This document shows positions 1-16,107 of a stretch of 16,107 bases of DNA, piece by piece; within the stretch, counting starts at the first letter, position 1; every line of letters begins with the position of its first letter. The position numbers and the translations under genes were made by a program. The DNA is taken from contig JAZDMQ010000089.1 in the NCBI GenBank assembly GCA_043800755.1, positions 1 through 16,107 on the forward strand, written 5' to 3'. This DNA is from a bacterium (GTDB taxonomy: Bacteria > Methylomirabilota > Methylomirabilia > CAVQYV01). Below the pieces are notes generated by a model. It was not told where the DNA came from. It searched no databases and worked only from the letters and a program-made list of their open reading frames with translations.

Positions 1-1663
1 TGACCTTCTCCAAGACCTGCCCCCGGGGCAGTTTCCATTCCTCCCCGGTTTTCCGCCAGCGGATCTCTACCAGCCCTTCCCGCAGGGCCCGGGGCCCGAT
101 GGTGATGCGCACCGGAATGCCGATCAGATCCGCATCCTTGAACTTGCCGCCCGGGCGCTCGTCCCGGTCATCGAGCAGGGTCTCGATCCCCTGCCCGGTC
201 ATCTCCCCATAGAGATCTTCCGCCATCTCTTGCATCGCGGGCTCCTTGAAGTTGACCGGAAGGATGAGAACCTGGAAAGGGCTGATCGCTCGGGGCCAGA
301 TCATGCCATTCTGATCGTGGCTCTGCTCGATAAGAGCAGCCGCAATGCGCGCAGGTCCGATACCGTAGGACCCCATGACGATTGGCCTTTCCTTTCCCGA
401 TTCGTCCAGGTAGTAAGCCTTCAAGGGCTCCGAGTACTTGGTCCCCAGCTTGAAGATATTGCCCACCTCGATGCAGCGCAAAAAGTCCAATTCTGCCGGG
501 CAACTGGGACAGAGATCCCCTTTCTGCGCCGAGCGGATATCCGCGAAGCGAGCCTGGGAGTGCTCTTGTGGCTTGACCCCTCGCAGGTGAAAGCCGGACT
601 TGTTGGCCCCTGCCACATAGACCCCCTCCTGCAGACAGAGGTCCGCGATCTTGGGCAGGTCCAGATCGACCGGGCCGAGGAAGCCGGCCTCCACCCCTCC
701 CCATTCCATGACCTCCTCACGATGGGCAGGCCTGAACTCCCCGACCAGGCGGGTCAGCTTGGCGGGATGCAGCTGCTGATCGCCCCTCACCATGGCCAGC
801 ATGGGACCATCTTGGGTGACGACCATGATGGTCTTGATCAGCAGCCGGGGGTCGATCTTGAGAAAGGCGGAGACCTCCTCGATGGTGCGGGCCTCGGGGG
901 TGGCGACCTTCTGCAGGGGGACCTCCTGGAAATCGGGGAGGCGGACCTGGGAGACGGCCAGCTCGACATTGGCAGCGTAGCCGCAGGAGGGGCAGAGGGC
1001 GACCTCATCCTCCCCGGCCTCGCTGGGGGCCATAAACTCGTGGGCCCCGGCCCCACCCATCATCCCCGGATCGCTCTCCACCACATAGAACTTCAACCCG
1101 CAGCGGGAGAAGATTTGCCGATAGGCCTGAAGGTGTTGTTGATAGCTCCGCTCCAGCCCTTCCTCATCTTGATCGAAGCTGTAAGAGTCCTTCATGATGA
1201 ATTCGCGGGTGCGGAGCAGGCCGCTCTTGGGCCTGGCCTCGTCCCGCAGCTTGGTTTGAATCTGATACCAGATCTGGGGCAAGTCGCGGTAGGAACGGAT
1301 CTCCCGGGCCGCCAGCCAGGTCATGATTTCCTCATGGGTCATGCCCAGGGCCATATCTCGCCCGCCCCGATCCTTGAGGCGGAACATCTCCTGGCCGATG
1401 TCATACCACCGCCCCGTCTGCTGCCAGATCTCGGCGGGGTGGAGCACGGGCATGAGGAATTCCTGGGCGCCGATGGCCTCCATCTCCTCCCGGATGATCT
1501 GATGGATCTTCTCCATCACCCTCCAACCGAGGGGAAGATAAATGTATAAACCCGCAGCCAACTGTCTGATGAGGCCCCCGCGAACCATGAGTTTGTGGCT
1601 GACGGATTCCGACTCCGCGGGATCCTCCTTCAGGGTGGGGATTAGATAATTAGACCAGCGCAT
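1..1663 (-). CDS. proS: Proline--tRNA ligase, bacterial type; 3' end lies beyond the left window edge
   Basis: Absent from the ORF track because no stop is in the window. Manual translation from ATG at 1663: MRWSNYLIPTLKEDPAESESVSHKLMVRGGLIRQLAAGLYIYLPLGWRVMEKI. The left end reads LLDDRDERPGGKFKDADLIGIPVRITIG (anticodon-binding domain) in the same frame. AAGGAG RBS upstream. Overlaps the ispG stop by 14 nt. Confidence 0.97.
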   Translation of the reverse strand, partial: MRWSNYLIPTLKEDPAESESVSHKLMVRGGLIRQLAAGLYIYLPLGWRVMEKIHQIIREEMEAIGAQEFLMPVLHPAEIWQQTGRWYDIGQEMFRLKDRGGRDMALGMTHEEIMTWLAAREIRSYRDLPQIWYQIQTKLRDEARPKSGLLRTREFIMKDSYSFDQDEEGLERSYQQHLQAYRQIFSRCGLKFYVVESDPGMMGGAGAHEFMAPSEAGEDEVALCPSCGYAANVELAVSQVRLPDFQEVPLQKVATPEARTIEEVSAFLKIDPRLLIKTIMVVTQDGPMLAMVRGDQQLHPAKLTRLVGEFRPAHREEVMEWGGVEAGFLGPVDLDLPKIADLCLQEGVYVAGANKSGFHLRGVKPQEHSQARFADIRSAQKGDLCPSCPAELDFLRCIEVGNIFKLGTKYSEPLKAYYLDESGKERPIVMGSYGIGPARIAAALIEQSHDQNGMIWPRAISPFQVLILPVNFKEPAMQEMAEDLYGEMTGQGIETLLDDRDERPGGKFKDADLIGIPVRITIGPRALREGLVEIRWRKTGEEWKLPRGQVLEKV

Positions 1664-2804
1664 CGGATTTGACTCCTTTTCGTAGCTGTTCTACTGCTTC
1701 CAGCAGGGCATCGACCAGTTCGGCCTCAGGGACCTTCTTCAGGATCTTTCCCCTGCAGAAGAGGATTCCCACGCCCCTGCCTCCCGCAATCCCCAGGTCC
1801 GCAGCCCGGGCCTCCCCCGGCCCATTGACCGGGCAGCCCATGACGGCGATATGGAGAGGATCCGGGATGTCCTTCAATCTCTGTTCTACCTCCCGGGCCA
1901 GGGCCTGGATGTCGATCTCGGCCCGTCCACAGGAGGGACAGGAGATCAGCACCGGACCCCTCTCCCGTAGCCCCAGGGAGCGCAGGATCTCGTAGCCGAC
2001 CCTCACCTCCTCGACCGGGTCCGCGGTCAGGGAGACCCGGAGGGTGTCCCCGATTCCTTCTGCCAGTAGGATCCCCAGGCCGATGGCCGAGCGGATGCCC
2101 CCGCCAAACGCTGTTCCCGCCTCGGTGATCCCGAGATGCAAAGGATAGTCATAGCGCTCGGAGAAGAGGTGATACGCGGCGACGGTGAGGGAAATGTTGA
2201 ACGCCTTCAGGGAGACCTTGATCCGGTCGAAGCCCAAGTCCTCGAGGATCGAAAGGTGCCGGGCCGCGCTCTTTACCATCGCCTCGGCCGTGGGCTGGCC
2301 ATGCCGTGCCAGAAGGTCCTTCTCCAACGAGCCGGCGTTCACCCCGATGCGGATGGGGACCTGCCGCTCCTGGGCAGCCCTGACCACCTCTTCTACCTTC
2401 CAGCGGGCCCCAATATTGCCCGGGTTGAGGCGTAGACCGTCCACTCCTGCCTCCAAGGCGGCCAATGCCAGGCGATGGTCGAAATGGATATCGGCGACGA
2501 TCGGGATGCGGACTTGAGCCTTGATCTCCCTCAGGGAATCCGCCGCAGATGCGTCCGGGACGGCCACGCGGACGATCTCGCAGCCTGCGATTTCCAAGGC
2601 CCTCACCTCTCTCAGGGTGGCCTCCATATCCTCGGTGTCGGTCTTGGTCATCGATTGCACCGAGATCGGAGAATTCCCGCCCACCGCTACCTTCCCCACC
2701 CAGATCTTCTTGGTCTTTTTCCGCGGATGGGGGATCGTGGAAAGATGGCAGGAAGAGTCACCAGGCGGGAGATTGGCGCTTGGTCTGGGGTGTCGGTTCC
2801 TCAC
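1650..2804 (-). CDS. ispG: (E)-4-hydroxy-3-methylbut-2-enyl-diphosphate synthase (GcpE/IspG)
   Basis: Motifs ISVQSMT, ADIHF, RLNPGN, RIGVNAGS, GIGDTLRVSL and the Fe-S cysteines CPSCGR...MGCPVNGPGEA. The likely start is the GTG at 2804, which overlaps the rseP stop (GTGA) and has GGAG upstream. The listed 581-aa ORF over-extends into rseP. Exact start uncertain. Confidence 0.95.
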   Translation of the reverse strand: MRNRHPRPSANLPPGDSSCHLSTIPHPRKKTKKIWVGKVAVGGNSPISVQSMTKTDTEDMEATLREVRALEIAGCEIVRVAVPDASAADSLREIKAQVRIPIVADIHFDHRLALAALEAGVDGLRLNPGNIGARWKVEEVVRAAQERQVPIRIGVNAGSLEKDLLARHGQPTAEAMVKSAARHLSILEDLGFDRIKVSLKAFNISLTVAAYHLFSERYDYPLHLGITEAGTAFGGGIRSAIGLGILLAEGIGDTLRVSLTADPVEEVRVGYEILRSLGLRERGPVLISCPSCGRAEIDIQALAREVEQRLKDIPDPLHIAVMGCPVNGPGEARAADLGIAGGRGVGILFCRGKILKKVPEAELVDALLEAVEQLRKGVKSDALV

Positions 2805-3856
2805 GGGCTGCTCCAGAGGCGAAAGAGGTCGTTGTAGAAGGCAAAGATCATCAGGGCCACCAGGAGAATGAGCCCGACCTGCTGGGCCAGCTCTCGCTTC
2901 CGCAGGGCGATGGGCTTTCCTCTGATTGCCTCCAACAGAAAGAAGAGGAGGTGGCCACCATCCAAAATCGGGATGGGAAGGAGGTTCAAGATGGCAAGGT
3001 TGATGCTCAGGAGGGCGGTGAAAAGGAGTAGGTGGATGAGGCCCATGCGGGCTTGTTCTCCCGCCAACTGGGCGACCAGGATGGGCCCTCCGATGGTCTT
3101 TGCCGGTATTTTGCCCTGTATCAGGCGAACGATGGAGACCCCTATGAGGGCAGAGACCTCCCAGGTGCGGTAGAGGCTGAGGTAGAGGGCGCGGAAAGGA
3201 TTGATCCTCTCGATGACGAATTCTTGGGAGGGGACTATACCGAGGAGGCCGACCTCTACCTCTTCCCCCAGGATAGTCTTCTGTTTGGAGGCCTGGGGGG
3301 TGAGGGTCAGCTCTTGCCGTTTTCCTTCTCGCTCCAGGGTAATCCGGAGCGGCCTTCCCGGGGCGTCGTGGATGCGGAACGCCAGATCGTTCCACCGTTG
3401 CACCCCTTCTCCATTCACGGCCACGATGCGGTCCCCCGCCTTGACCCCTCCCTTGGCTGCCGGAAAGCCCTCTTTGACCTCGCCGATCTTGGTGGTCAGG
3501 GCTGGAATGCCAATGACGAAGCAGAACCAGAATAAAAGCACGGCCAGAAGCAAGTTAAAGGCAGGACCCCCAAAGACGATCAGCGCCCTCTTGCCCACGC
3601 TCTTCTGGGAGAAGGACTTCTGGAGATCGGGCGAAGCCTCTGCCGGGTCCTCACCCACCATCTTGACATAGCCCCCGAGGGGGATCGCGGAGACCAGGTA
3701 TTCGGTTTCGCCCCGGCGAAACCCAAAGAGCTTGGGGCCGAAGCCGAGGGAAAATTTTTGAACCCCCACGCCAGATCGTTTTGCCAGAAGGAAGTGTCCG
3801 GTCTCGTGAGCAAAGATCAAGACGCCCAACACTAAAATGGCCGCAAGGATGCTCAT
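2801..3856 (-). CDS. rseP: RIP (site-2) zinc metalloprotease RseP, M50 family with one PDZ domain
   Basis: HETGH (HExxH), FSLGFGP, IPLGGYVKM, GGPAFN and NLLPIPILDGG motifs; sits between dxr and ispG; ATGA overlap with dxr. Confidence 0.96.
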   Translation of the reverse strand: MSILAAILVLGVLIFAHETGHFLLAKRSGVGVQKFSLGFGPKLFGFRRGETEYLVSAIPLGGYVKMVGEDPAEASPDLQKSFSQKSVGKRALIVFGGPAFNLLLAVLLFWFCFVIGIPALTTKIGEVKEGFPAAKGGVKAGDRIVAVNGEGVQRWNDLAFRIHDAPGRPLRITLEREGKRQELTLTPQASKQKTILGEEVEVGLLGIVPSQEFVIERINPFRALYLSLYRTWEVSALIGVSIVRLIQGKIPAKTIGGPILVAQLAGEQARMGLIHLLLFTALLSINLAILNLLPIPILDGGHLLFFLLEAIRGKPIALRKRELAQQVGLILLVALMIFAFYNDLFRLWSSP

Positions 3857-5167: not shown

Positions 5168-5350
5168 CTCACGATTGACTCAAATAATGTCTTATGTACC
5201 AGCAGATATGCTAGCAACAGGTATTTTCCGAGGGCCGAACTCCAAGGATAAAGGGGAAAAAGAGAAGCTACAGACAGGTATGGAAAGGCACCGAGTTTCA
5301 ATTTCTCGGGACCTCTTTCCCGGCTGGTACCTCGAGGATGGACCTGGGGT

Positions 5351-5635
5351 TCAAAACTGATAAACGGTCTCTCCTGGCTTCACTAAGCCCAGCTCATCCC
5401 TAGCCACTTTTTCTATTCTTCCCAGATCCTCCTGCCAGGAAGCAGCTTCCTCTTTGAGGGCTGCGTTCTTTGCCTTCGACTCTGCGATCTGAAGATGCAG
5501 ATGCTGCTCAGTTCGATAGAGCCGATAAAGGCTGAGAATGCCTCGGCTGCTAAAGAGAGAGAGGAGAAAAAGCAGAAGGAAAAAAAATCCTACCCACAGC
5601 AAATACCTGCGTGCGCCACCCTTCCCCTTATCCAT
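5351..5635 (-). CDS. ftsB: Septum formation initiator, FtsB/DivIC family
   Basis: N-terminal TM helix, coiled coil, IEKVARDELGLVKPGETVY signature; conserved position downstream of eno. Confidence 0.88.
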   Translation of the reverse strand: MDKGKGGARRYLLWVGFFFLLLFLLSLFSSRGILSLYRLYRTEQHLHLQIAESKAKNAALKEEAASWQEDLGRIEKVARDELGLVKPGETVYQF

Positions 5636-5652
5636 GACGATTCGTTGCCTTT

Positions 5653-6975
<1,323 letters not shown>

Positions 6976-8400
6976 TCAGGAATAAATGAGATCTTTCCCA
7001 GCCGCGAGCAGCCGATCCATTTGGGCCTCGTCCCTTGCTTCCACATAGAGGCGAGCGACTGGCTCGGTTCCGGACACCCGGAAGAGCACCCAGCTTCCGT
7101 CATCGAAGAGCAACTTCATTCCATCCAGATCCCTTAGATCGACCACCTTTTGTCCTCCCAAGGTCATGGGTGGGTAGCGAAGCCTCTCTCGCAGTCGATC
7201 GAGCACCTCTGGTTCCAAGTGGAAGTTCACCCTTCGCGTGAGGATCGGACCGCCCACCTCCACAAAGAGATCTTGGAGCAGTTGACGGAGACGGGCCTTG
7301 TCTGCCTGGGCCAGCATCTCTGCCACCAGGAGACAGGCGAGAATGCCGTCTTTCTCGGGGATATGGCCTTTAATCGAAAGCCCAGCGCTCTCCTCTCCGC
7401 CCAAGATGAGGCGATCTTTGGAGATGAGCTCCCCAATGTACTTGAAGCCCACCGGGGTTTCGATCACCGGAATTCCATACCTCCTAGCCACCGCATCGAT
7501 GAGATGCGTGGTGGCCACAGATCGCGCTACAGCCCCCTCCCATCGGCGGGATTGGACCAGATGTTTGAGCAGCAATGCCAGAATGTAATTGGGCAAGATG
7601 AAGGTGCCATCCGCGTCTACGATCCCGAAACGATCCGCGTCCCCATCTGTGGCCAGACCCAGATGAGAACCGGTTTCCATCACATTGAAGCCGAGTTCCT
7701 TCAGGTTCTCTTCTGAAGGCTCCGGGGCCGCATTCCCGAAGTATGGATCTCGCCAATTGTGGAGAGACTTCGTCTGGCACCCTGCATCCTGGAAGGTTTT
7801 ATCCAAGTAACCCCGAGCGGTCCCATAGAGGGAATCGACCACGATCTTCAGGCCGGAGGAAGCGATGATCCCGAGATCCACAATTTCCCCGAGCCTCTCC
7901 AGGTAAGGCTTCTGAGGATCTACTCTCTCCAATATTCCCTGAGATTCCGCCTCGGCCATGGAGATCTCGTGAAAATGGAAAGGTCCGAGAAACTCCTGGA
8001 CTCGGACCTCGATCCTGCGCGTAACCTGGGGAAGGGCCGGCCCCCCGCTGGGGGAGGAGAATTTCAAGCCGTTATATTCTGCGGGGTTGTGGCTGGCGGT
8101 GATATTGATCGCCCCGCCTGCCCCCCTCCGAATAATCTCGTAAGCAATGGCGGGGGTGGGGGTTGCCTGGGTGCAGAAGAAGGTATGAATGCCATTGGCA
8201 GTCAGGATCTTAGCCACCTGATGGGCAAAGGCCTCGGAGAGGAAACGCGTATCGTAGCCCACGACGATCCCTCTTCCTCCCAGGCCCTCTGCAAGAAGAT
8301 ACTCTGCAATGGCCTGGGTGACGATCCGAACGTTGGTGAAGGTGAAATCGTCCGCAATAACTCCACGCCACCCAGATGTACCGAACCTGATCTGCGCCAT
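6976..8400 (-). CDS. Phosphoglucomutase/phosphomannomutase family protein with intact catalytic motifs
   Basis: FGTSGWRG, phosphoserine loop ITASHNP, metal loop TDGDADRFG, sugar loop GGEESAG and phosphate loop RVSGTEP. Confidence 0.93.
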   Translation of the reverse strand: MAQIRFGTSGWRGVIADDFTFTNVRIVTQAIAEYLLAEGLGGRGIVVGYDTRFLSEAFAHQVAKILTANGIHTFFCTQATPTPAIAYEIIRRGAGGAINITASHNPAEYNGLKFSSPSGGPALPQVTRRIEVRVQEFLGPFHFHEISMAEAESQGILERVDPQKPYLERLGEIVDLGIIASSGLKIVVDSLYGTARGYLDKTFQDAGCQTKSLHNWRDPYFGNAAPEPSEENLKELGFNVMETGSHLGLATDGDADRFGIVDADGTFILPNYILALLLKHLVQSRRWEGAVARSVATTHLIDAVARRYGIPVIETPVGFKYIGELISKDRLILGGEESAGLSIKGHIPEKDGILACLLVAEMLAQADKARLRQLLQDLFVEVGGPILTRRVNFHLEPEVLDRLRERLRYPPMTLGGQKVVDLRDLDGMKLLFDDGSWVLFRVSGTEPVARLYVEARDEAQMDRLLAAGKDLIYS

Positions 8401-8424
8401 AGCGTCTCCCTTTGGGGGCTCAGA

Positions 8425-10920
8425 CTACAGCCAATTCTTGATCTTTTCCCGAAATTGGCAAACCAAAGCCTCGGCGCGCGGTCTCTGATCCCCTTCCGCC
8501 GTAATATGAAAGAAGGGCTTATCCTGATCAGGGTAAAGGAGCACCCAATCCTTTCCGAAATAGACCTTGATGCCGTCTATCAACTCTACATTCTCCGTCT
8601 TCGTCTCCTCGATCAGATTACGCATCATAGTTCCCTTGGATTCCCAGGGGCAGGGGATTTGGTCGCGGAGGAGAAAGCGCTCCGGGACCGAGCGAATCAA
8701 CTGGTGGAGCCGTAGCTCCTGAGAGGCCATCATCTCGAGGATCTTCAGGGTCGCCGTCATACCATCGAAGGCCGGCTGGAATTGGGGGAAGATGAAGCCT
8801 CCGAAGGCGTCGCCCACAAAAACCACACCTTCCCGGGCGGCAGCCTCCATGAGGGATCGAGATGAGGTCTTGGTGCGAATCACCTGAAACCCGTAACGCG
8901 TCGCCAGATCCTCTATGACGCTGGAGGCGACCACTGGGACTCCAATGATGCCAGGGGGATGGGTGCGGAGCACCAAAAGGGTGATCAGAGCGAGAGCCAG
9001 GTCATCCGAAAGGATATCCCCCTTGTCATCGACCAGGAAGATTTTTTCAGCCCCGGTGTCCAGCATGATCCCCAAGTCGGCGTTCAGGGTGCGCACGATC
9101 TCCGCCAGTTGCCGGAGGGAACGGCGAAACTCCTCGGCGGTCTTCGTCACTTTCGTCTCGTCCATATAGGCGTTCAGGGCAATGACCTCACACCCCAGAT
9201 CTCCCAACAAGGAGGGGAAGATGGTAGACGAACTCCCGTAGGAATAATCCATGACGATCTTCAGGTGGGCCTCGCGAACCACCTTGGGGTTGACGAAACT
9301 CATCGCCCCTTCCTGGTAATATTCAATCCCGTGCTCCAGGATCGAGAGCCTGCCAGTTTCTTCCATCTTAGCCCTGCGAAAGTCCTCCCGGAAAAAAAGC
9401 CGCTCGATGGTCCTCTCCTTCGCCGAAGAGATGTCCATTCCCCGCTCATCAAAGAACTTGATGTCAATGAGTTCCGGATCATAGGGCGATTTGCGGACGT
9501 GCACGCCGCTCACCGCTCCCTGGGCGTCCATTTGATAACGAACCACGGGAATCGGGATGATCCGGAGGTCGTGAACATTAACCCCGGCGGAGAGTAAGCC
9601 CGAGATGATGGCCCGATTGACCATCCGGGAAGTCTTGTGGGAATCGCGACTGGTACGGACAATGGCATTCTCCCGAAGAGAGGCACCAAAACAGGCCCCT
9701 AACTTAGCAGCGAACTCTGGGGTGACCTCAATATTGCCCAGGCCCGTGACCCCCTGCCCCCCGAAGACGGACTTGCTCCATCTCTCTCCCCAGATGAGCG
9801 AGGTCGCCAGGGTTGCCCCGTCCTCCACCACCTTATAAGGCCAGACCTTCACATTGGCTTTGAGGACAGATCCCTCGCCGATTTTACAATGATCGCTCAC
9901 CAAGGCCCCCTCAAAAAGGGAAGCGAATGCCTTGATCTCGCTGCCCTTGCCGACCACATTCTCCCGCAGAGAGGCGCCCTTGCCGACATAAACCCCATTC
10001 CAGATAATCGAATCGGCAATGGAGGCGCCTGCTTCAATAACGCAATCGTCCCCTATGACCGAGTTGACGATCCTGGCTTCTGGGCCCACCTGGGAGCCTT
10101 TTCCAATCAAGACGGAGCCCTCAAGGGCTGCGGTAAAATCAACCCGGCAGTCTTGATCCAACCAGATCTCCCGGTCGGGCCCCTCCAGCCTTCTCCCGGG
10201 GAACTTCACCTTTACCTTTCCGGAGAGAATATCGCGATGGGCGATTCGGTATTCCAAGAGGTCCCCAATATCCCTCCAATAGCCAGAGGCGGTGTATCCA
10301 TAAAGGGGCACCCCTTCCTGCAGGAGGCGAGGGAAGAGGTCTTGGCTGAAGTCAAACTCCCTGCGGGCGGGGATGTACCCGAGGACCTCGGGCTCGAGGA
10401 TGTAGATCCCGGTATTGATCGTGTCAGAGAAGACCTCACTCCAATTCGGCTTCTCCAAGAACTTCCGGATGCGGCCTTCTTCGTCGACGATGACGACACC
10501 ATATCGGAGGGGGTCTTGGACTCGCGTGAGGACAATCGTGGCCATGGATTTTTGGGCACGATGAAAGGAGATGGCCTCCTTGAGGTCAAAGTCCGTGAGC
10601 ACATCCCCACTGATGATGAGGAAGGTGGAGTTCAACCGATCCGCTGCCCCTTTGACGGATCCCGCGGTTCCCCAATCCTCTTCCGCTGAGAGGTAAGAGA
10701 TATTTACCCCGAACTCCTCGCCTCCCCGAAAATACTCCTCAATGGCCTCAGGTTGAAAGTAGAGCAGGGCGACCAGCTCCGTGATCCCGTTGGCCCTCAG
10801 CAGTTCAACGATATGCTCCATCACTGGCTTGTTGGCCATGGGAATCATGGGCTTGGGGATGTTATTGGTGAGAGGCCGGAGTCGAGTACCGAATCCGCCG
10901 GCCATGATCAGGGCTTGCAC
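8425..10920 (-). CDS. Mannose-1-phosphate guanylyltransferase-like fusion: nucleotidyltransferase + left-handed beta-helix + phosphomannomutase-like domain
   Basis: MAGGFGTRLRPLT...PKPM, GTAGS, FLEKP and YWRDIG motifs; hexapeptide repeats; C-terminal PGM/PMM-type fold. GTG start with GAGGAG RBS. Sugar specificity is inferred. Confidence 0.88.
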   Translation of the reverse strand: MQALIMAGGFGTRLRPLTNNIPKPMIPMANKPVMEHIVELLRANGITELVALLYFQPEAIEEYFRGGEEFGVNISYLSAEEDWGTAGSVKGAADRLNSTFLIISGDVLTDFDLKEAISFHRAQKSMATIVLTRVQDPLRYGVVIVDEEGRIRKFLEKPNWSEVFSDTINTGIYILEPEVLGYIPARREFDFSQDLFPRLLQEGVPLYGYTASGYWRDIGDLLEYRIAHRDILSGKVKVKFPGRRLEGPDREIWLDQDCRVDFTAALEGSVLIGKGSQVGPEARIVNSVIGDDCVIEAGASIADSIIWNGVYVGKGASLRENVVGKGSEIKAFASLFEGALVSDHCKIGEGSVLKANVKVWPYKVVEDGATLATSLIWGERWSKSVFGGQGVTGLGNIEVTPEFAAKLGACFGASLRENAIVRTSRDSHKTSRMVNRAIISGLLSAGVNVHDLRIIPIPVVRYQMDAQGAVSGVHVRKSPYDPELIDIKFFDERGMDISSAKERTIERLFFREDFRRAKMEETGRLSILEHGIEYYQEGAMSFVNPKVVREAHLKIVMDYSYGSSSTIFPSLLGDLGCEVIALNAYMDETKVTKTAEEFRRSLRQLAEIVRTLNADLGIMLDTGAEKIFLVDDKGDILSDDLALALITLLVLRTHPPGIIGVPVVASSVIEDLATRYGFQVIRTKTSSRSLMEAAAREGVVFVGDAFGGFIFPQFQPAFDGMTATLKILEMMASQELRLHQLIRSVPERFLLRDQIPCPWESKGTMMRNLIEETKTENVELIDGIKVYFGKDWVLLYPDQDKPFFHITAEGDQRPRAEALVCQFREKIKNWL

Positions 10921-10956
10921 CGGGGCTCCTCCCTCATGAGACTAAATCTTAGGCCT

Positions 10957-10986
10957 AATATAAGGGCTCGATCGCTTGATCGTCAA
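10957..10986 (-). promoter_or_regulatory. Sigma70-type promoter for the leftward operon
   Basis: TTGACG-N18-TATATT on the minus strand; the -10 element ends ~36 nt upstream of the GTG at 10920. Confidence 0.55.
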
Positions 10987-11189
10987 GACCTTTTTGGCTG
11001 ATGGCTGATGGGGGCAGGCTGCGCTCGAAATGGACTGTAAATCGGGCGAAAAGAGGGATGATGTGGGCAAAAAAAGAATTAAGAAACGATAATTGCCAAA
11101 AAACAGAGAAAAACATCAACAATATTCATCCTCAGTGCCAATTTGCCCTTTTCCTGTGCAGGGGAACCCCATTATTCGAAAATCGAATT

Positions 11190-11217
11190 TTGAAATTTGC
11201 GCGAGTTCCGCTATCTT
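11190..11217 (+). promoter_or_regulatory. Probable groESL promoter
   Basis: TTGAAA-N16-TATCTT immediately upstream of the CIRCE element. Confidence 0.55.
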
Positions 11218-11226
11218 AGGGTCAGT

Positions 11227-11253
11227 TTAGCACTCATCGTATGAGAGTGCTAA
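11227..11253 (+). promoter_or_regulatory. CIRCE element (HrcA operator)
   Basis: Perfect TTAGCACTC-N9-GAGTGCTAA upstream of groES. Confidence 0.97.
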
Positions 11254-11421
11254 CAGAGCGATTTAACTTATTGATTCTTATTGATCTTTGGTGTGGAGTA
11301 CCGATGGGGTAAGGAGGTGAAAAAGGAACATCGCATACGCGCTGGCGTGTCGCAGGAAGGCCTTGAGGGGATAGGCCTTGCTGCGCTTGGTTCACAAAAA
11401 TTGTGAGGGAAGGAGCATTCA

Positions 11422-11712
11422 ATGAAGATTCGACCCCTGCAGGATCGCATCTTGGTGAAACGGCTGGAAGAGAAAGAGAGCAAGAAGGGCGGTATTATCA
11501 TCCCGGATACCGCCAAAGAGAAACCGCAGGAGGGAGAGGTCGTTGCCGTGGGCGCCGGAAAGATCGGAGAGGATGGAAAGAGACAGGCGTTGGAGGTCAA
11601 GAAGGGGGATAAGATCCTCTTCGGAAAATATTCCGGCACTGAGGTGAAGATCGAAGACGAGGAATATCTTATCATCCGCGAGGAAGAGGTACTGGGGATT
11701 ATCGAAAAGTAA
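11422..11712 (+). CDS. groES: Co-chaperonin GroES
   Basis: [28 protein letters not shown] and GKYSGTEV motifs; AAGGAG RBS. Confidence 0.99.
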
Positions 11713-11737
11713 TTGTGGATTTAATCTGAATCGATGA

Positions 11738-13378
<1,641 letters not shown>

Positions 13379-13478
13379 AGGATTGGATGAAGGAAAGACC
13401 CTCCTTCGCTTGACTTGACGCAGCCTGTCCTTCGGATTGGCCTTCGACTGAGGGGGGTTTTGGAAACTGATCAGAGTA

Positions 13479-13512
13479 GGGCCCCTTCCCACTTGGGGAG
13501 GGGCCCCTTTTA
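13479..13512 (+). terminator. Intrinsic terminator of groESL
   Basis: 12-bp GC-rich stem GGGCCCCTTCCC-ACTT-GGGGAGGGGCCC (one G.U pair) followed by CTTTTATTCCTTTT. Confidence 0.8.
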
Positions 13513-13525
13513 TTCCTTTTATTCC

Positions 13526-13554
13526 TTGACAAATATGGGGGTTTTTAATAAGAG
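13526..13554 (+). promoter_or_regulatory. Possible sigma70 promoter, perhaps the native hemL promoter
   Basis: Consensus TTGACA at 13526-13531 right after the terminator, followed by an AT-rich tract. The -10 at 17-nt spacing (TAAGAG) is only partial. Confidence 0.4.
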
Positions 13555-13616
13555 AGATTAAACCACTCGCAGATCCCCGCCGTGGGCGGGCAGAACCTTC
13601 CCGTATGACCCATAGT

Positions 13617-13674
13617 CGCGATTCTTGCTGCTGCTCTACGCCGGTGAAGCTGGAAGAGAGCGGCAGGGATTGCG
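13617..13674 (+). other. Long G.U-rich hairpin, core of a candidate structured RNA
   Basis: 16 contiguous pairs 13617-13632/13659-13674 (four G.U), then 13634-13637/13655-13658 and an apical stem 13641-13644/13650-13653. Confidence 0.4.
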
Positions 13675-13746
13675 CCCGCGGTCTATTCCTTCATTCATTA
13701 CGACCTCATATTATGGGTGGTTCGCCTTGGAGTTAGTTTTGGCGTA

Positions 13747-13790
13747 TTAACGCGGCTCTAACGCAGAATAAACTTTAGGCGTGGTAAAAT
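13747..13790 (+). promoter_or_regulatory. pdxS promoter: extended -10 preceded by 11-bp-periodic direct repeats
   Basis: TGGTAAAAT (TGn + TAAAAT) at 13782-13790; TTAACGC (13747), CTAACGC (13758) and degenerate TAAACTT (13769). Confidence 0.5.
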
Positions 13791-13827
13791 CCAATTGGTT
13801 GATATTTTCTTAAAGAAGGAGCAAGAT

Positions 13828-14721
13828 ATGGAAGCGACACCTGTTACCGGTACATTTGCGGTCAAGAAGGGTCTGGCTCAAATGTTGAAGGGCGGCGTGA
13901 TCATGGACGTGGTGACGCCGGAGCATGCCAAAATTGCCGAGGATGCGGGCGCGTGTGCGGTGATGGCGCTGGAGCGCGTGCCGGCGGATATCCGCGCACA
14001 GGGCGGCGTGGCGCGCATGAGCGACCCTGACTTGATTGAGAAAATCATGGCTTCTGTGACCATCCCGGTCATGGCGAAGTGCCGGATCGGGCATTTCGTG
14101 GAAGCGCAAATTCTCGAGGCGATCGGCGTGGACTACATAGACGAATCCGAAGTGCTGACTCCGGCCGATGAGGAACATCACATCCTGAAGCATAATTTCA
14201 AGGTGTCGTTCGTGTGTGGATGCCGCAATCTGGGTGAAGCGCTGCGGCGTATCGGCGAGGGCGCGGCGATGATCCGCACGAAGGGAGAGGCCGGGACCGG
14301 CGATGTGGTCGAGGCAGTCCGTCATGGCCGCACCGTGCTGGGCGAGATCCGCCGGCTGCAGACGATGGCGGATGAGGAGCTGATGCGTTATGCCAAGGAG
14401 ATCGGTGCGCCGTATGAACTGGTCAAGGAGACCAAGGAACTGGGACGCATGCCGGTGGTCAACTTTGCCGCGGGTGGGATTGCGACCCCGGCTGACGCGG
14501 CCCTCATGATGCAGATCGGCGTGGACGGTGTGTTCGTCGGCTCGGGAATTTTCAAGAGCGGCGACCCTGCCAAGCGCGCGGCCGCCATTGTTAAAGCGAC
14601 GACACACTTCAACGATCCTGCGATCCTGGCCGAAGTCAGCCGCAACCTGGGCGAGCCAATGGTCGGGCGGAATATTTCGCAGATGCCGGAAGGCGAGAAG
14701 ATCGCCGGGCGCGGGTGGTGA
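13828..14721 (+). CDS. pdxS: Pyridoxal 5'-phosphate synthase lyase subunit PdxS
   Basis: [57 protein letters not shown] and [11 protein letters not shown] motifs. The ATG at 13828 follows an AAGGAG RBS and is preferred over the TTG at 13795. Confidence 0.98.
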
Positions 14722-14777
14722 TTAGGTTTTCCTGATTTCCTCGTCGCCTGATCCCGAACTACCTTTATTGCACACAC

Positions 14778-15359
14778 ATGATAAGAATTGGTGTCCTTGC
14801 GCTGCAGGGCGACTTCGCCGAACATATCGTGATGCTCAAGCGTCTGGGTGTGACACCTGTCGAAGTGCGTCTGGCAAAGCAGCTTGAGGGTTTGAACGGG
14901 CTGATCATCCCCGGTGGCGAGTCGACGACCATTGGCAAACTCGCGGTGGACTTTGGCTTGATGGAGCCGCTGCGTGCGTTTGGCAAGTCACACGCCGTCT
15001 GGGGCACCTGTGCAGGTGCCATCTTTCTCTCCAAGGATGCCCGCCGCCATCAACCCTTGCTCAGTATTATGGATATCACTGTTGAGCGTAATGCCTTCGG
15101 CCGGCAGGTCGATTCGTTCGAGGCCGACCTCGACATTGAGCCGCTCAAGCAGGCAACCCAAACATCCACGCCGTACCATGCCGTGTTCATCCGCGCGCCG
15201 ATCATCCAGTCGGTCAGCGGCCATGCGAAAATCCTTTCAGCGCTGCCGGATGGCCGCATTGTTGCGGCACAGGAAGGAAAACTGCTGGCGACCTCTTTCC
15301 ACCCGGAACTCACTGAAGACCTTCGTTTTCACGAGTATTTTATTTCGCTCACAAAATAG
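14778..15359 (+). CDS. pdxT: Pyridoxal 5'-phosphate synthase glutaminase subunit PdxT
   Basis: GVLALQG, IIPGGESTT, catalytic GTCAG, RNAFGRQVDSF, VFIRAP and SFHPEL motifs; directly follows pdxS. Confidence 0.98.
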   Translation: MIRIGVLALQGDFAEHIVMLKRLGVTPVEVRLAKQLEGLNGLIIPGGESTTIGKLAVDFGLMEPLRAFGKSHAVWGTCAGAIFLSKDARRHQPLLSIMDITVERNAFGRQVDSFEADLDIEPLKQATQTSTPYHAVFIRAPIIQSVSGHAKILSALPDGRIVAAQEGKLLATSFHPELTEDLRFHEYFISLTK

Positions 15360-15435
15360 AAAATGAACATCAACGGCTGACGAATATTCCTGCCCCTTTT
15401 GAGCGACTGAAAAGATTGCTGCGACAAGAAACAAT

Positions 15436-16038
15436 ATGTCCTCCCATCCCCTCGATCTGCTCGATCTGCCCACGCTCTACCGTTTTCGCGGCGAGGCCGT
15501 CAGCCTGGACTCTGCCCGTCTGCTGACACGCGGCAACCCATTGGGTGCGGCGGGGTTCCTGTCCTATTTCAATCCGGCGCGCCATCTTTACACGGCCATC
15601 AGTCAGGAAAACGGGACGACGTTATTTGGCGGCATCCTGCATACGAACGGGGACTCGTTCGCCAGGCTGGTGTACATCGCACCCGCCGCACAACTGTCTC
15701 ACCCCGGCCTGCCGCTGTTGATTGAGCACCTCACCGCTGAAGCGGGCAAGTGGGGTGCGTTCCACATCCTGGCCGAAGTGAATGAGACCAGCGATGCTTT
15801 CTCTGCCCTGCGCATGGCAGGCTTTGCCGTCTATGCCTGGCAGCGCATGTGGGATGTGAGCCACATCGCCCCTAGCTCCTCTGCCAGCGGATGGATGCGG
15901 GCGCAATCCGCCAACCTGCCTGCCGTGCAATCCCTACACCATGCGTTTTCCCTAACCTTTTTCCAAAAGGAGCGAATTTGGGAGATCGTTCGAGGCAACT
16001 CTTTGAGGAAGCGAAGCGCTATCTTCCCGGGGGAGTAA
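15436..16038 (+). pseudogene. Hypothetical protein (possibly GNAT-fold-like), apparently truncated at ~15942 and running on into unrelated sequence
   Basis: The first ~168 codons look like a real globular protein (HILAEVNE...LRMAGFAVYAWQRMW). The tail [16 protein letters not shown]... reads through a pyrimidine tract, the hemL RBS and 61 nt of hemL in another frame. Family assignment is tentative. Confidence 0.55.
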
Positions 16039-16107
16039 ACAGCCCGGTACGGTCCTTCAGGGCGGTCGGGGGAACTCCCCTCTTTATTGAACGGGGCAAG
16101 GGCTGCA
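15978..16107 (+). CDS. hemL: Glutamate-1-semialdehyde 2,1-aminomutase, 5' fragment running off the right edge
   Basis: Not in the ORF track. TTG at 15978 after AAGGAG (15967-15972) translates as [43 protein letters not shown], with the hallmark PGGVNSPVR. Confidence 0.93.

Follow-up and report, generated by a model that had tools for sequence, protein, structure and literature searches.

The 16,107-bp window analysed here constitutes the whole of contig JAZDMQ010000089.1 (C8), one of the 166 contigs of a 2.43-Mb metagenome-assembled genome (MAG; G000), and carries between its groEL and hemL genes a 2243-bp block with pdxS and pdxT, the genes for the two subunits of pyridoxal 5'-phosphate (PLP) synthase, together with the 5' part of a third gene. 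This block very likely represents a recent, still polymorphic capture of genes from another phylum by illegitimate end-joining. In this reading, the leader of hemL in an NC10/Methylomirabilota-type bacterium was broken 36 nt ahead of the start codon, and a linear chromosomal fragment of an Anaerolineae bacterium was joined into the break without homology or mobile-element function. The fragment would have brought along the region with the pdxS promoter, both pdxS and pdxT in intact form, and codons 1 to 169 of the gene that follows. A recent date is indicated by a donor codon signature that has not changed and by 95% DNA identity to the closest sequenced donor relative, and contigs with an uninterrupted site in three public runs indicate that the insertion is not fixed.

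Junctions, uninterrupted allele and host

The junction evidence derives from contigs of four public runs (X1 to X4), among which X1, X2 and X4, from three studies, include contigs that cross the site without the block. Runs X5 to X24, which contain 0.16-0.21 of the sampled words, form no part of this evidence. The X1 contig (841 nt, depth 15.1) comprises window positions 12879-13698 followed by 30 letters from 15942, in that of X2 (427 nt) 81 letters up to position 13698 precede 15942-16107, and that of X4 (690 nt) consists of 13442-13691, twelve other letters and 15942-16107. The shorter side of the joint thus measures 81 letters in X2, 166 in X4 and only 30 in X1. In X1 and X2 the joint passes from 13698 to 15942 and skips 2243 positions, with one letter that fits both sides, so that the insert is either 13699-15941 or 13700-15942. 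Beyond this letter no sequence is shared at the junctions, and no host base was lost or duplicated at the insertion site. The match to the window ends at 15942 in all donor loci, each of which continues with its own gene, and host-like sequence begins at 15943. The right end of the block was therefore base-exact in the original prediction (13730 to 15942), while the true left end, as given by the uninterrupted contigs, lies 31 nt further to the left, at 13699.

The X1 run also contains four pieces of the block, with zero to one differences from the window and depths of 2.2 to 5. One of these, a contig of 452 nt (15520-15971, no differences), reaches 30 letters into the hemL leader, where it meets an X1 contig that starts at 15942 and has a depth of 17.5, close to the sum of 15.1 and 4.1. 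When contigs are built from 31-letter words, they normally overlap by 30 letters where the assembly graph forks, and each word that such a contig contains is taken from reads.

The ancestral arrangement is found in the sole other genome of the same family (G001), whose GroEL is 93% identical to that of the window, with values of 79-83% in families f3 to f6 and at most 77% in f2. This genome is collinear with window positions 5348-13377 (5348-10932 at 74.5% DNA identity; groES-groEL, 11404-13377, at 82.2%), and its hemL start, 250 nt past its groEL, matches 15968-16107 at 78.6%, with the local alignment extending back to 15943. The closest relative thus has groEL directly followed by hemL, which was the gene order that the original prediction had proposed to look for. 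The nearest named GroEL proteins (~83% identity) are labelled Candidatus Methylomirabilis, Methylomirabilaceae and candidate division NC10, and judged by GroEL and flanking synteny the host is an NC10/Methylomirabilota-type bacterium. The tallies of GroEL, PdxS and the third-gene family among relatives and across the phylum include two unpublished genomes (G030 and G039), on neither of which any claim depends.

The host leader segment 13584-13698 is absent from G001, and an initial left-boundary estimate of ~13584, made from the comparison with G001 alone, was rejected since the uninterrupted contigs show this stretch to be host DNA. Its comparison with the block and with the closest donor locus, on both strands, gave no significant similarity, with 5 to 183 of 200 shuffles reaching the observed score.

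Donor affiliation and gene content of the block

The closest relative of the block is found in a MAG labelled Anaerolineae bacterium (locus L123), which is 95.04% identical in DNA over window positions 13746-15942 (2197 nt) and encodes a PdxT with 97.4% identity. Most of the differences between the two are synonymous, the numbers of synonymous and other codon differences being 34 and 7 in pdxS, 19 and 5 in pdxT, and 18 and 5 in the third gene. The PdxS protein shares 91-98% identity with the 119 metagenome proteins listed, of which only two are named (Chloroflexota bacterium and Anaerolineales bacterium). The window protein is sister to that of L123 (support 100/90) in a 78-row PdxS tree, several nodes deep within the Chloroflexota, while the eleven rows from the host phylum form a separate clade (100/99). 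The gene and host phylogenies are therefore in conflict, with PdxS grouping with the Chloroflexota, and GroEL and the synteny of the flanks with NC10-type relatives. Real PdxS matches occur in 21 of 40 relatives from the host class, all of them in families f2 and f5 and with no more than 75% identity, while the nineteen genomes of families f1, f3, f4 and f6 gave only weak matches of ~60 residues (E 1e-4 to 1e-5). The third-gene family is absent from all 40 relatives and from the 250 other host-phylum genomes searched (251 including G000, of which only 104 are at least 90% complete). In a scan of species-representative genomes, all 80 loci kept were titled Anaerolineae, Anaerolineales, Anaerolinea, Anaerolineaceae, Chloroflexota, Chloroflexi or 'Chloroflexia', and the order pdxS-pdxT-third gene is present in 65 of the 70 loci with at least 1700 nt of upstream DNA. 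On this phylogenetic placement the donor is an Anaerolineae (Chloroflexota) bacterium. The statements in the original prediction that the third gene and the gene order resemble those of Anaerolineae, and that the flanks do not, agree with these results.

Both PLP synthase subunits are complete. The PdxS protein scores 369.7 bits against Pfam SOR_SNZ (cut-off 27), and its residues 5-297 of 297 align with the solved PdxS structure 2zbt; similarly, PdxT scores 198.4 bits against SNO (cut-off 27) and aligns with the solved PdxT 2ywd over residues 4-191. The motifs which we take to be those of the PdxS catalytic lysines and of the PdxT Cys-His-Glu triad are present in the alignments. By comparison with seven homologues (291-307 aa), the third open reading frame (ORF) loses all similarity past residue 169, a point beyond which the homologues extend by ~135 residues. 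The frame continues for 32 codons through host DNA, over the ribosome-binding site (RBS) and start codon of hemL, and the C-terminal part of the protein was not found anywhere in the genome. The third-gene family comprises 1887 members, typically of ~305 aa, and has no Pfam family. There is a weak hint of GNAT-type proteins, in that PF18014 was matched at E 0.12 in one of three members, and GNAT appears in 23-45% of the members of its Atlas neighbours (0.93-0.95). The uncharacterised protein is encoded at L123:4001-4918 and at 79 further loci (L124-L202); its gene comes after pdxT in 65 of the 70 Anaerolineae loci, which suggests a link to vitamin B6 metabolism.

Upstream of pdxS, 78 columns are identical between the window and L123 (82 and 81 bases aligned, respectively). 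The block had been predicted to have its own extended -10 promoter; the element concerned, TGGTAAAAT at 13782-13790, is invariant in donor alignments A2 and A3, but a promoter scan of 13300-16107 reported no sites, so that the promoters of both hemL and pdxS are recognised by eye or by conservation. As had also been claimed, pdxT lacks a strong AGGAG-type RBS, with no GGAG ahead of its ATG, while pdxS is preceded by a strong RBS, AAGGAG, that came with the fragment. The leftmost 47 nt of the insert (13699-13745) remain unmatched, since a translated comparison of 13501-13800 with the 80 donor loci gave nothing below E 0.35, and are presumed to be donor intergenic DNA. In L123 the similarity to the window begins 18 nt past the end of a DDE transposase gene (L123:1122-2294; PF01609 and PF13808), and the donor loci L043, L044 and L054 have a divergent ORF at that place, which by eye alone resembles a GntR-type regulator.

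The codon choice of the block differs from that of the host in specific directions. In pdxS, AGA, AGG and CGA account for none of 18 Arg codons, GCG for 22 of 39 Ala codons, GGC and GGT for 22 of 32 Gly codons and CCC for none of 13 Pro codons, whereas in groEL AGA, AGG and CGA make up 7 of 23 Arg codons, GCC 29 of 56 Ala codons and GGG and GGA 24 of 50 Gly codons. The flanking genes favour GCC, CCC, ACC and GGG and use AGA, AGG and CGA freely. Against the background of all 1903 ORFs of at least 150 aa in the 2.43-Mb genome, pdxS and pdxT fall in percentiles 100 and 99 for NCG/(NCG+NCC), 0 and 1 for the share of AGA/AGG/CGA among Arg codons, and 4 and 0 for GGR among Gly codons. They are the only two of the 1903 ORFs with an NCG share above 0.55 and an AGA/AGG/CGA share of Arg below 0.12, thresholds that were set after the data had been seen. 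The counts and percentiles thus bear out the contrast first noticed by eye, in which pdxS was said to use only CGC, CGG and CGT for Arg and to favour GCG and GGC/GGT, unlike its flanks. The same genes in L123 give 0.64/0.11/0.28 and 0.57/0.09/0.06, the same values as pdxS and pdxT of the window, which indicates that the signature came in with the DNA.

Mode of insertion and alternative explanations

None of the marks of a mobile element or genomic island accompany the block. The sixteen window ORFs scanned with Pfam include no integrase, transposase or recombinase domain, no tRNA is present in the window, and neither terminal direct or inverted repeats nor a target duplication were found at the insert ends, the latter following from the flanks being adjacent bases in the uninterrupted site. 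The original prediction, which had listed integrase, transposase, tRNA and terminal repeat as missing, is confirmed on this point. Homology-facilitated illegitimate recombination is likewise not indicated, as the donor similarity (13746-15942) and the host flanks (to 13698 and from 15942) do not overlap. The lack of mobility marks and of a homologous anchor, together with an end that lies inside a gene, argues for an illegitimate integration of the end-joining type, involving a random chromosomal fragment. The joining would have followed DNA uptake. ComEC and DprA homologues are present in the genome, but also in 10 to 11 of 14 control genomes and in most bacteria, and Ku (PF02735) was not found in the genome, so that classical bacterial non-homologous end-joining is without a candidate enzyme here; with ComEC and DprA so common and Ku not found, both the route of uptake and the enzymes of joining are inferred. 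The two arms of a perfect 13-nt inverted repeat lie in host DNA (13667-13679, 19 nt left of the left junction) and in the insert (15897-15909, 32 nt left of the right junction). In a location-matched but post hoc null, 84 of 200000 random site pairs in the genome had such a repeat, and its orientation fits no simple annealing or integration model.

Along with the missing Ku, several observations weigh against this explanation. No contig of the four runs bridges either junction of the insertion allele with 31 letters on both sides, the contig over the right junction having 30 host letters. The left junction is without cover in all four runs (in X1, 13699-13830, with depth 0 at 13710-13830), leaving the window contig as its sole witness, and this gap proves nothing either way. 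All four runs are represented by contigs rather than raw reads, and X1 may be the sample from which the window itself derives. The X1 block contigs have a lower depth (2.2-5) than the flank contigs (15-17.5), and the uninterrupted X1 contig differs from the left flank of the window by a 9-nt indel and two letters, so that the left flank of the insertion-bearing strain itself is not seen in X1. Furthermore, the window contig ends 166 nt past the right junction, and the exact PdxS is recorded on one contig only, versus five for the exact GroEL. In terms of composition, pdxS, pdxT and the third ORF are not outliers in a general codon log-likelihood under a genome model (percentiles 39, 17 and 41), so that only the directional measures, such as Arg and NCG codon choice, separate the block; the third ORF is no codon outlier except in Gly (percentile 5), and the G+C and skew profile has no step at the block boundaries.

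Low block depth, an uncovered left junction, dominant contigs that skip the block, a contig that stops shortly after the right junction and a single contig with the exact PdxS could all be explained by an assembly chimera, in which the metagenome assembler threaded an Anaerolineae fragment into an NC10-type contig. De Bruijn assemblers join through shared words only. With a single letter shared by host and block, there is no repeat at the join for a graph assembler to cross, and two false joins would have to strike the adjacent host bases 13698 and 15942, which is the pattern of an insertion and not of two independent errors, given that these bases are neighbours in the uninterrupted allele. 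In addition, the separately built X1 contig 15520-15971 holds words that span the right junction, and the donor relatives continue differently past 15942. An assembly or splice chimera, put forward in the original prediction as the alternative, is therefore considered improbable, and it is highly likely that the insertion is real. The depths suggest that the insertion-bearing form is in the minority in X1, in a qualitative sense since contig depths are not shares of cells, and the ratio of one PdxS contig to five GroEL contigs agrees with a minority allele.

The transposase gene that adjoins the similarity in L123 could point to carriage by a mobile element (an insertion sequence, composite transposon, integron cassette or integrative element) of which the marks were lost or lie outside the block. 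This explanation appears similarly improbable, considering not only the lack of the corresponding domains, tRNAs, repeats and target duplication but also that one end cuts a gene at codon 169 and that the left 47 nt of the insert are unlike the end of the element in L123. Similarly, the presence of PdxS in families f2 and f5 of the same class would be compatible with a native, vertically inherited pdxST locus that relatives have lost, the uninterrupted contigs being deletion variants. The PdxS proteins of these two families are too distant and cluster separately, as against 95% DNA identity of the window to an Anaerolineae MAG, the codon signature is foreign, and PdxA and PdxJ provide an alternative route in this genome as in its nearest relatives. 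A native locus is refuted by the PdxS tree and by the truncated third gene, whose family occurs nowhere else in the phylum genomes searched, and it is accordingly regarded as exceedingly improbable. The recent illegitimate insertion across lineages that was originally proposed is thus supported by PdxS, the third gene, the gene order in G001 and the uninterrupted contigs.

Illegitimate insertion of this kind has laboratory parallels. For naturally transformed Acinetobacter baylyi, Huelter and Wackernagel reportedly measured how foreign DNA, in longer segments, is integrated by double illegitimate recombination. The present case resembles double illegitimate recombination in that heterologous DNA was integrated without a homologous anchor or mobile element and with no or minimal microhomology at both junctions, and in being rare. 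SPDIR, the short-patch form of double illegitimate recombination, as described in a preprint, involves patches of 3 to ~100 bp, relies on (extended) microhomologies and occurs at laboratory frequencies of ~1e-13 to 1e-12 (bioRxiv 10.1101/2023.11.22.568220). Relative to that description, the insert of 2243 bp with at most 1 nt shared does not conform to SPDIR, and it occurs in a natural, uncultivated population. Like genomic islands, the block is foreign, has atypical codons, is absent in relatives and lies between conserved housekeeping genes; unlike them, it spans only 2.2 kb, lacks an integrase, a transposase, a tRNA, direct repeats and a target duplication, and has one end inside a gene. 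It is thus an unusually well-resolved natural case of a known process and not a new kind of system. Among the titles listed by a search of the full-text literature on Methylomirabilota, horizontal gene transfer and Chloroflexota, none concerns this event. For most horizontal transfers the inference comes at a late stage, once junctions, donors and intermediate frequencies have been lost, whereas base-exact junctions, the uninterrupted allele, a donor relative with 95% identity, a half-cut gene and the lack of a mobile element can all be read here. The locus provides a natural example of an illegitimate integration route that laboratory work rates as extremely rare. For genome curation, it implies that this odd block in a MAG is probably biology rather than contamination, and that the representative genome carries a minority allele.

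Transcriptional and metabolic context and neighbouring genes

The insertion would have created a hybrid transcription unit consisting of the hemL promoter, the pdxS promoter, pdxS, pdxT, the truncated gene and hemL. As the block lies between the TTGACA element (Table 1) and the hemL RBS, and the terminator scan found no strong terminator past pdxT, hemL is probably transcribed together with the block. The promoter reading of 13526-13560 was made by eye, and the promoter scan did not report the element. The truncated third gene would be translated over the hemL start, up to its stop codon at 16036-16038.

In metabolic terms, PdxS and PdxT would form the one-step PLP synthase of the B6 pathway that is independent of 1-deoxy-D-xylulose 5-phosphate (DXP; structures 2zbt, 2ywd and 2nv2), with both subunits full length and aligning end to end with 2zbt and 2ywd. 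The proteins are ordinary, but the genomic setting is not the usual one, as the lineage otherwise relies on PdxA and PdxJ. PdxJ and PdxA (two matches) are present in the host genome and likewise in its relatives G001, G013 and G019, while G017, which has PdxS, is without PdxJ. The new operon would thus add a second PLP synthase beside the PdxA/PdxJ route and duplicate a function. Canonical PdxH (TIGR00558) was found in none of three genomes (G000, G001 and G013, one of which is a one-contig genome), so that this query leaves the last step of the PLP route unaccounted for in them, and a benefit from the new operon is possible. The hemL product itself requires the B6 cofactor. A look through the public runs found none on record as RNA. 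If pdxS and pdxT are expressed, they may have selective value. It is conceivable, though doubtful, that the locus displays inter-phylum transfer at its earliest stage, as a low-frequency capture of naked DNA, free of elements and homology, that segregates in a wild sediment population and may already be under selection; the presence of donor relatives with 95% identity in the same kind of sample forms part of this proposal. The locus offers a concrete place at which the recent arrival of a metabolic operon could be followed through a sediment time series in its frequency, its expression and its fitness.

The features around the insertion are summarised in Table 1. In the remainder of the window, Pfam matches give the minus-strand order proS, ispG, M50/PDZ protease, dxr, ftsB/DivIC, eno, phosphoglucomutase and a nucleotidyl-transferase/phosphoglucomutase fusion, while the plus strand carries groES, groEL, pdxS, pdxT and the ORF without a family, followed by the hemL start in another frame. 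Rfam gave no matches over the whole window.

Table 1. Coordinates of features in and around the pdxST insertion
Feature	Position	Strand	Details
groES	11422-11712	+	Host; Pfam Cpn10
groEL	11753-13378	+	Host; Pfam Cpn60_TCP1
groESL terminator hairpin and T run	13479-13506	+	12 pairs, 10 of them G-C; hairpin at the homologous place in G001
Promoter-like element of host hemL	13526-13560	+	TTGACA at 13526-13531; columns conserved with the groEL-hemL spacer of G001
Host hemL leader left of the insertion point	13561-13698	+	Covered by uninterrupted contigs of X1 and X2 (to 13698) and X4 (to 13691)
Inserted foreign fragment, 2243 bp	13699-15941	+	13700-15942 fits equally (1-nt ambiguity)
Left 47 nt of the insert	13699-13745	+	No similarity to L123, other donor loci or G001
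Donor pdxS upstream region	13746-13827	+	TGGTAAAAT at 13782-13790; AAGGAG at 13816-13821
pdxS, PLP synthase lyase subunit, intact, 297 aa	13828-14721	+	Pfam SOR_SNZ 2-207 of 207
pdxT, PLP synthase glutaminase subunit, intact, 193 aa	14778-15359	+	Pfam SNO 1-184 of 188
Truncated third gene	15436-16038	+	Codons 1-169 (to 15942) of a ~305-aa Chloroflexota protein
Host hemL leader and hemL codons 1-43	15942-16107	+	GGAG at 15969-15972; TTG start at 15978; runs off the contig end

The hemL fragment matches positions 2-40 of TIGR00713 (51 bits). The gene is split over two contigs, with positions 242-421 of TIGR00713 encoded on contig C59 of the same genome (C59:1-540) and ~200 hemL codons between the window end and C59 unassembled. 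Just past the groESL terminator, a 9-nt unit is present in two tandem copies (13510-13527), and the X1 contig is nine letters shorter at 13506, which indicates that this unit is a copy-number polymorphism among host strains. The ispG ORF as listed (581 aa; 1650-3395, minus strand) overlaps the M50 protease ORF (2801-3856), and its GcpE match starts only at residue 228; the true ispG start is probably located well downstream of the listed one. The fusion at 8425-10920 (minus strand; 831 aa) combines a nucleotidyl-transferase, a left-handed beta-helix and four phosphoglucomutase domains. The DNA similarity to G001 spans this fusion, and in G001 an ORF of 896 aa lies upstream of one with the size of a phosphoglucomutase.

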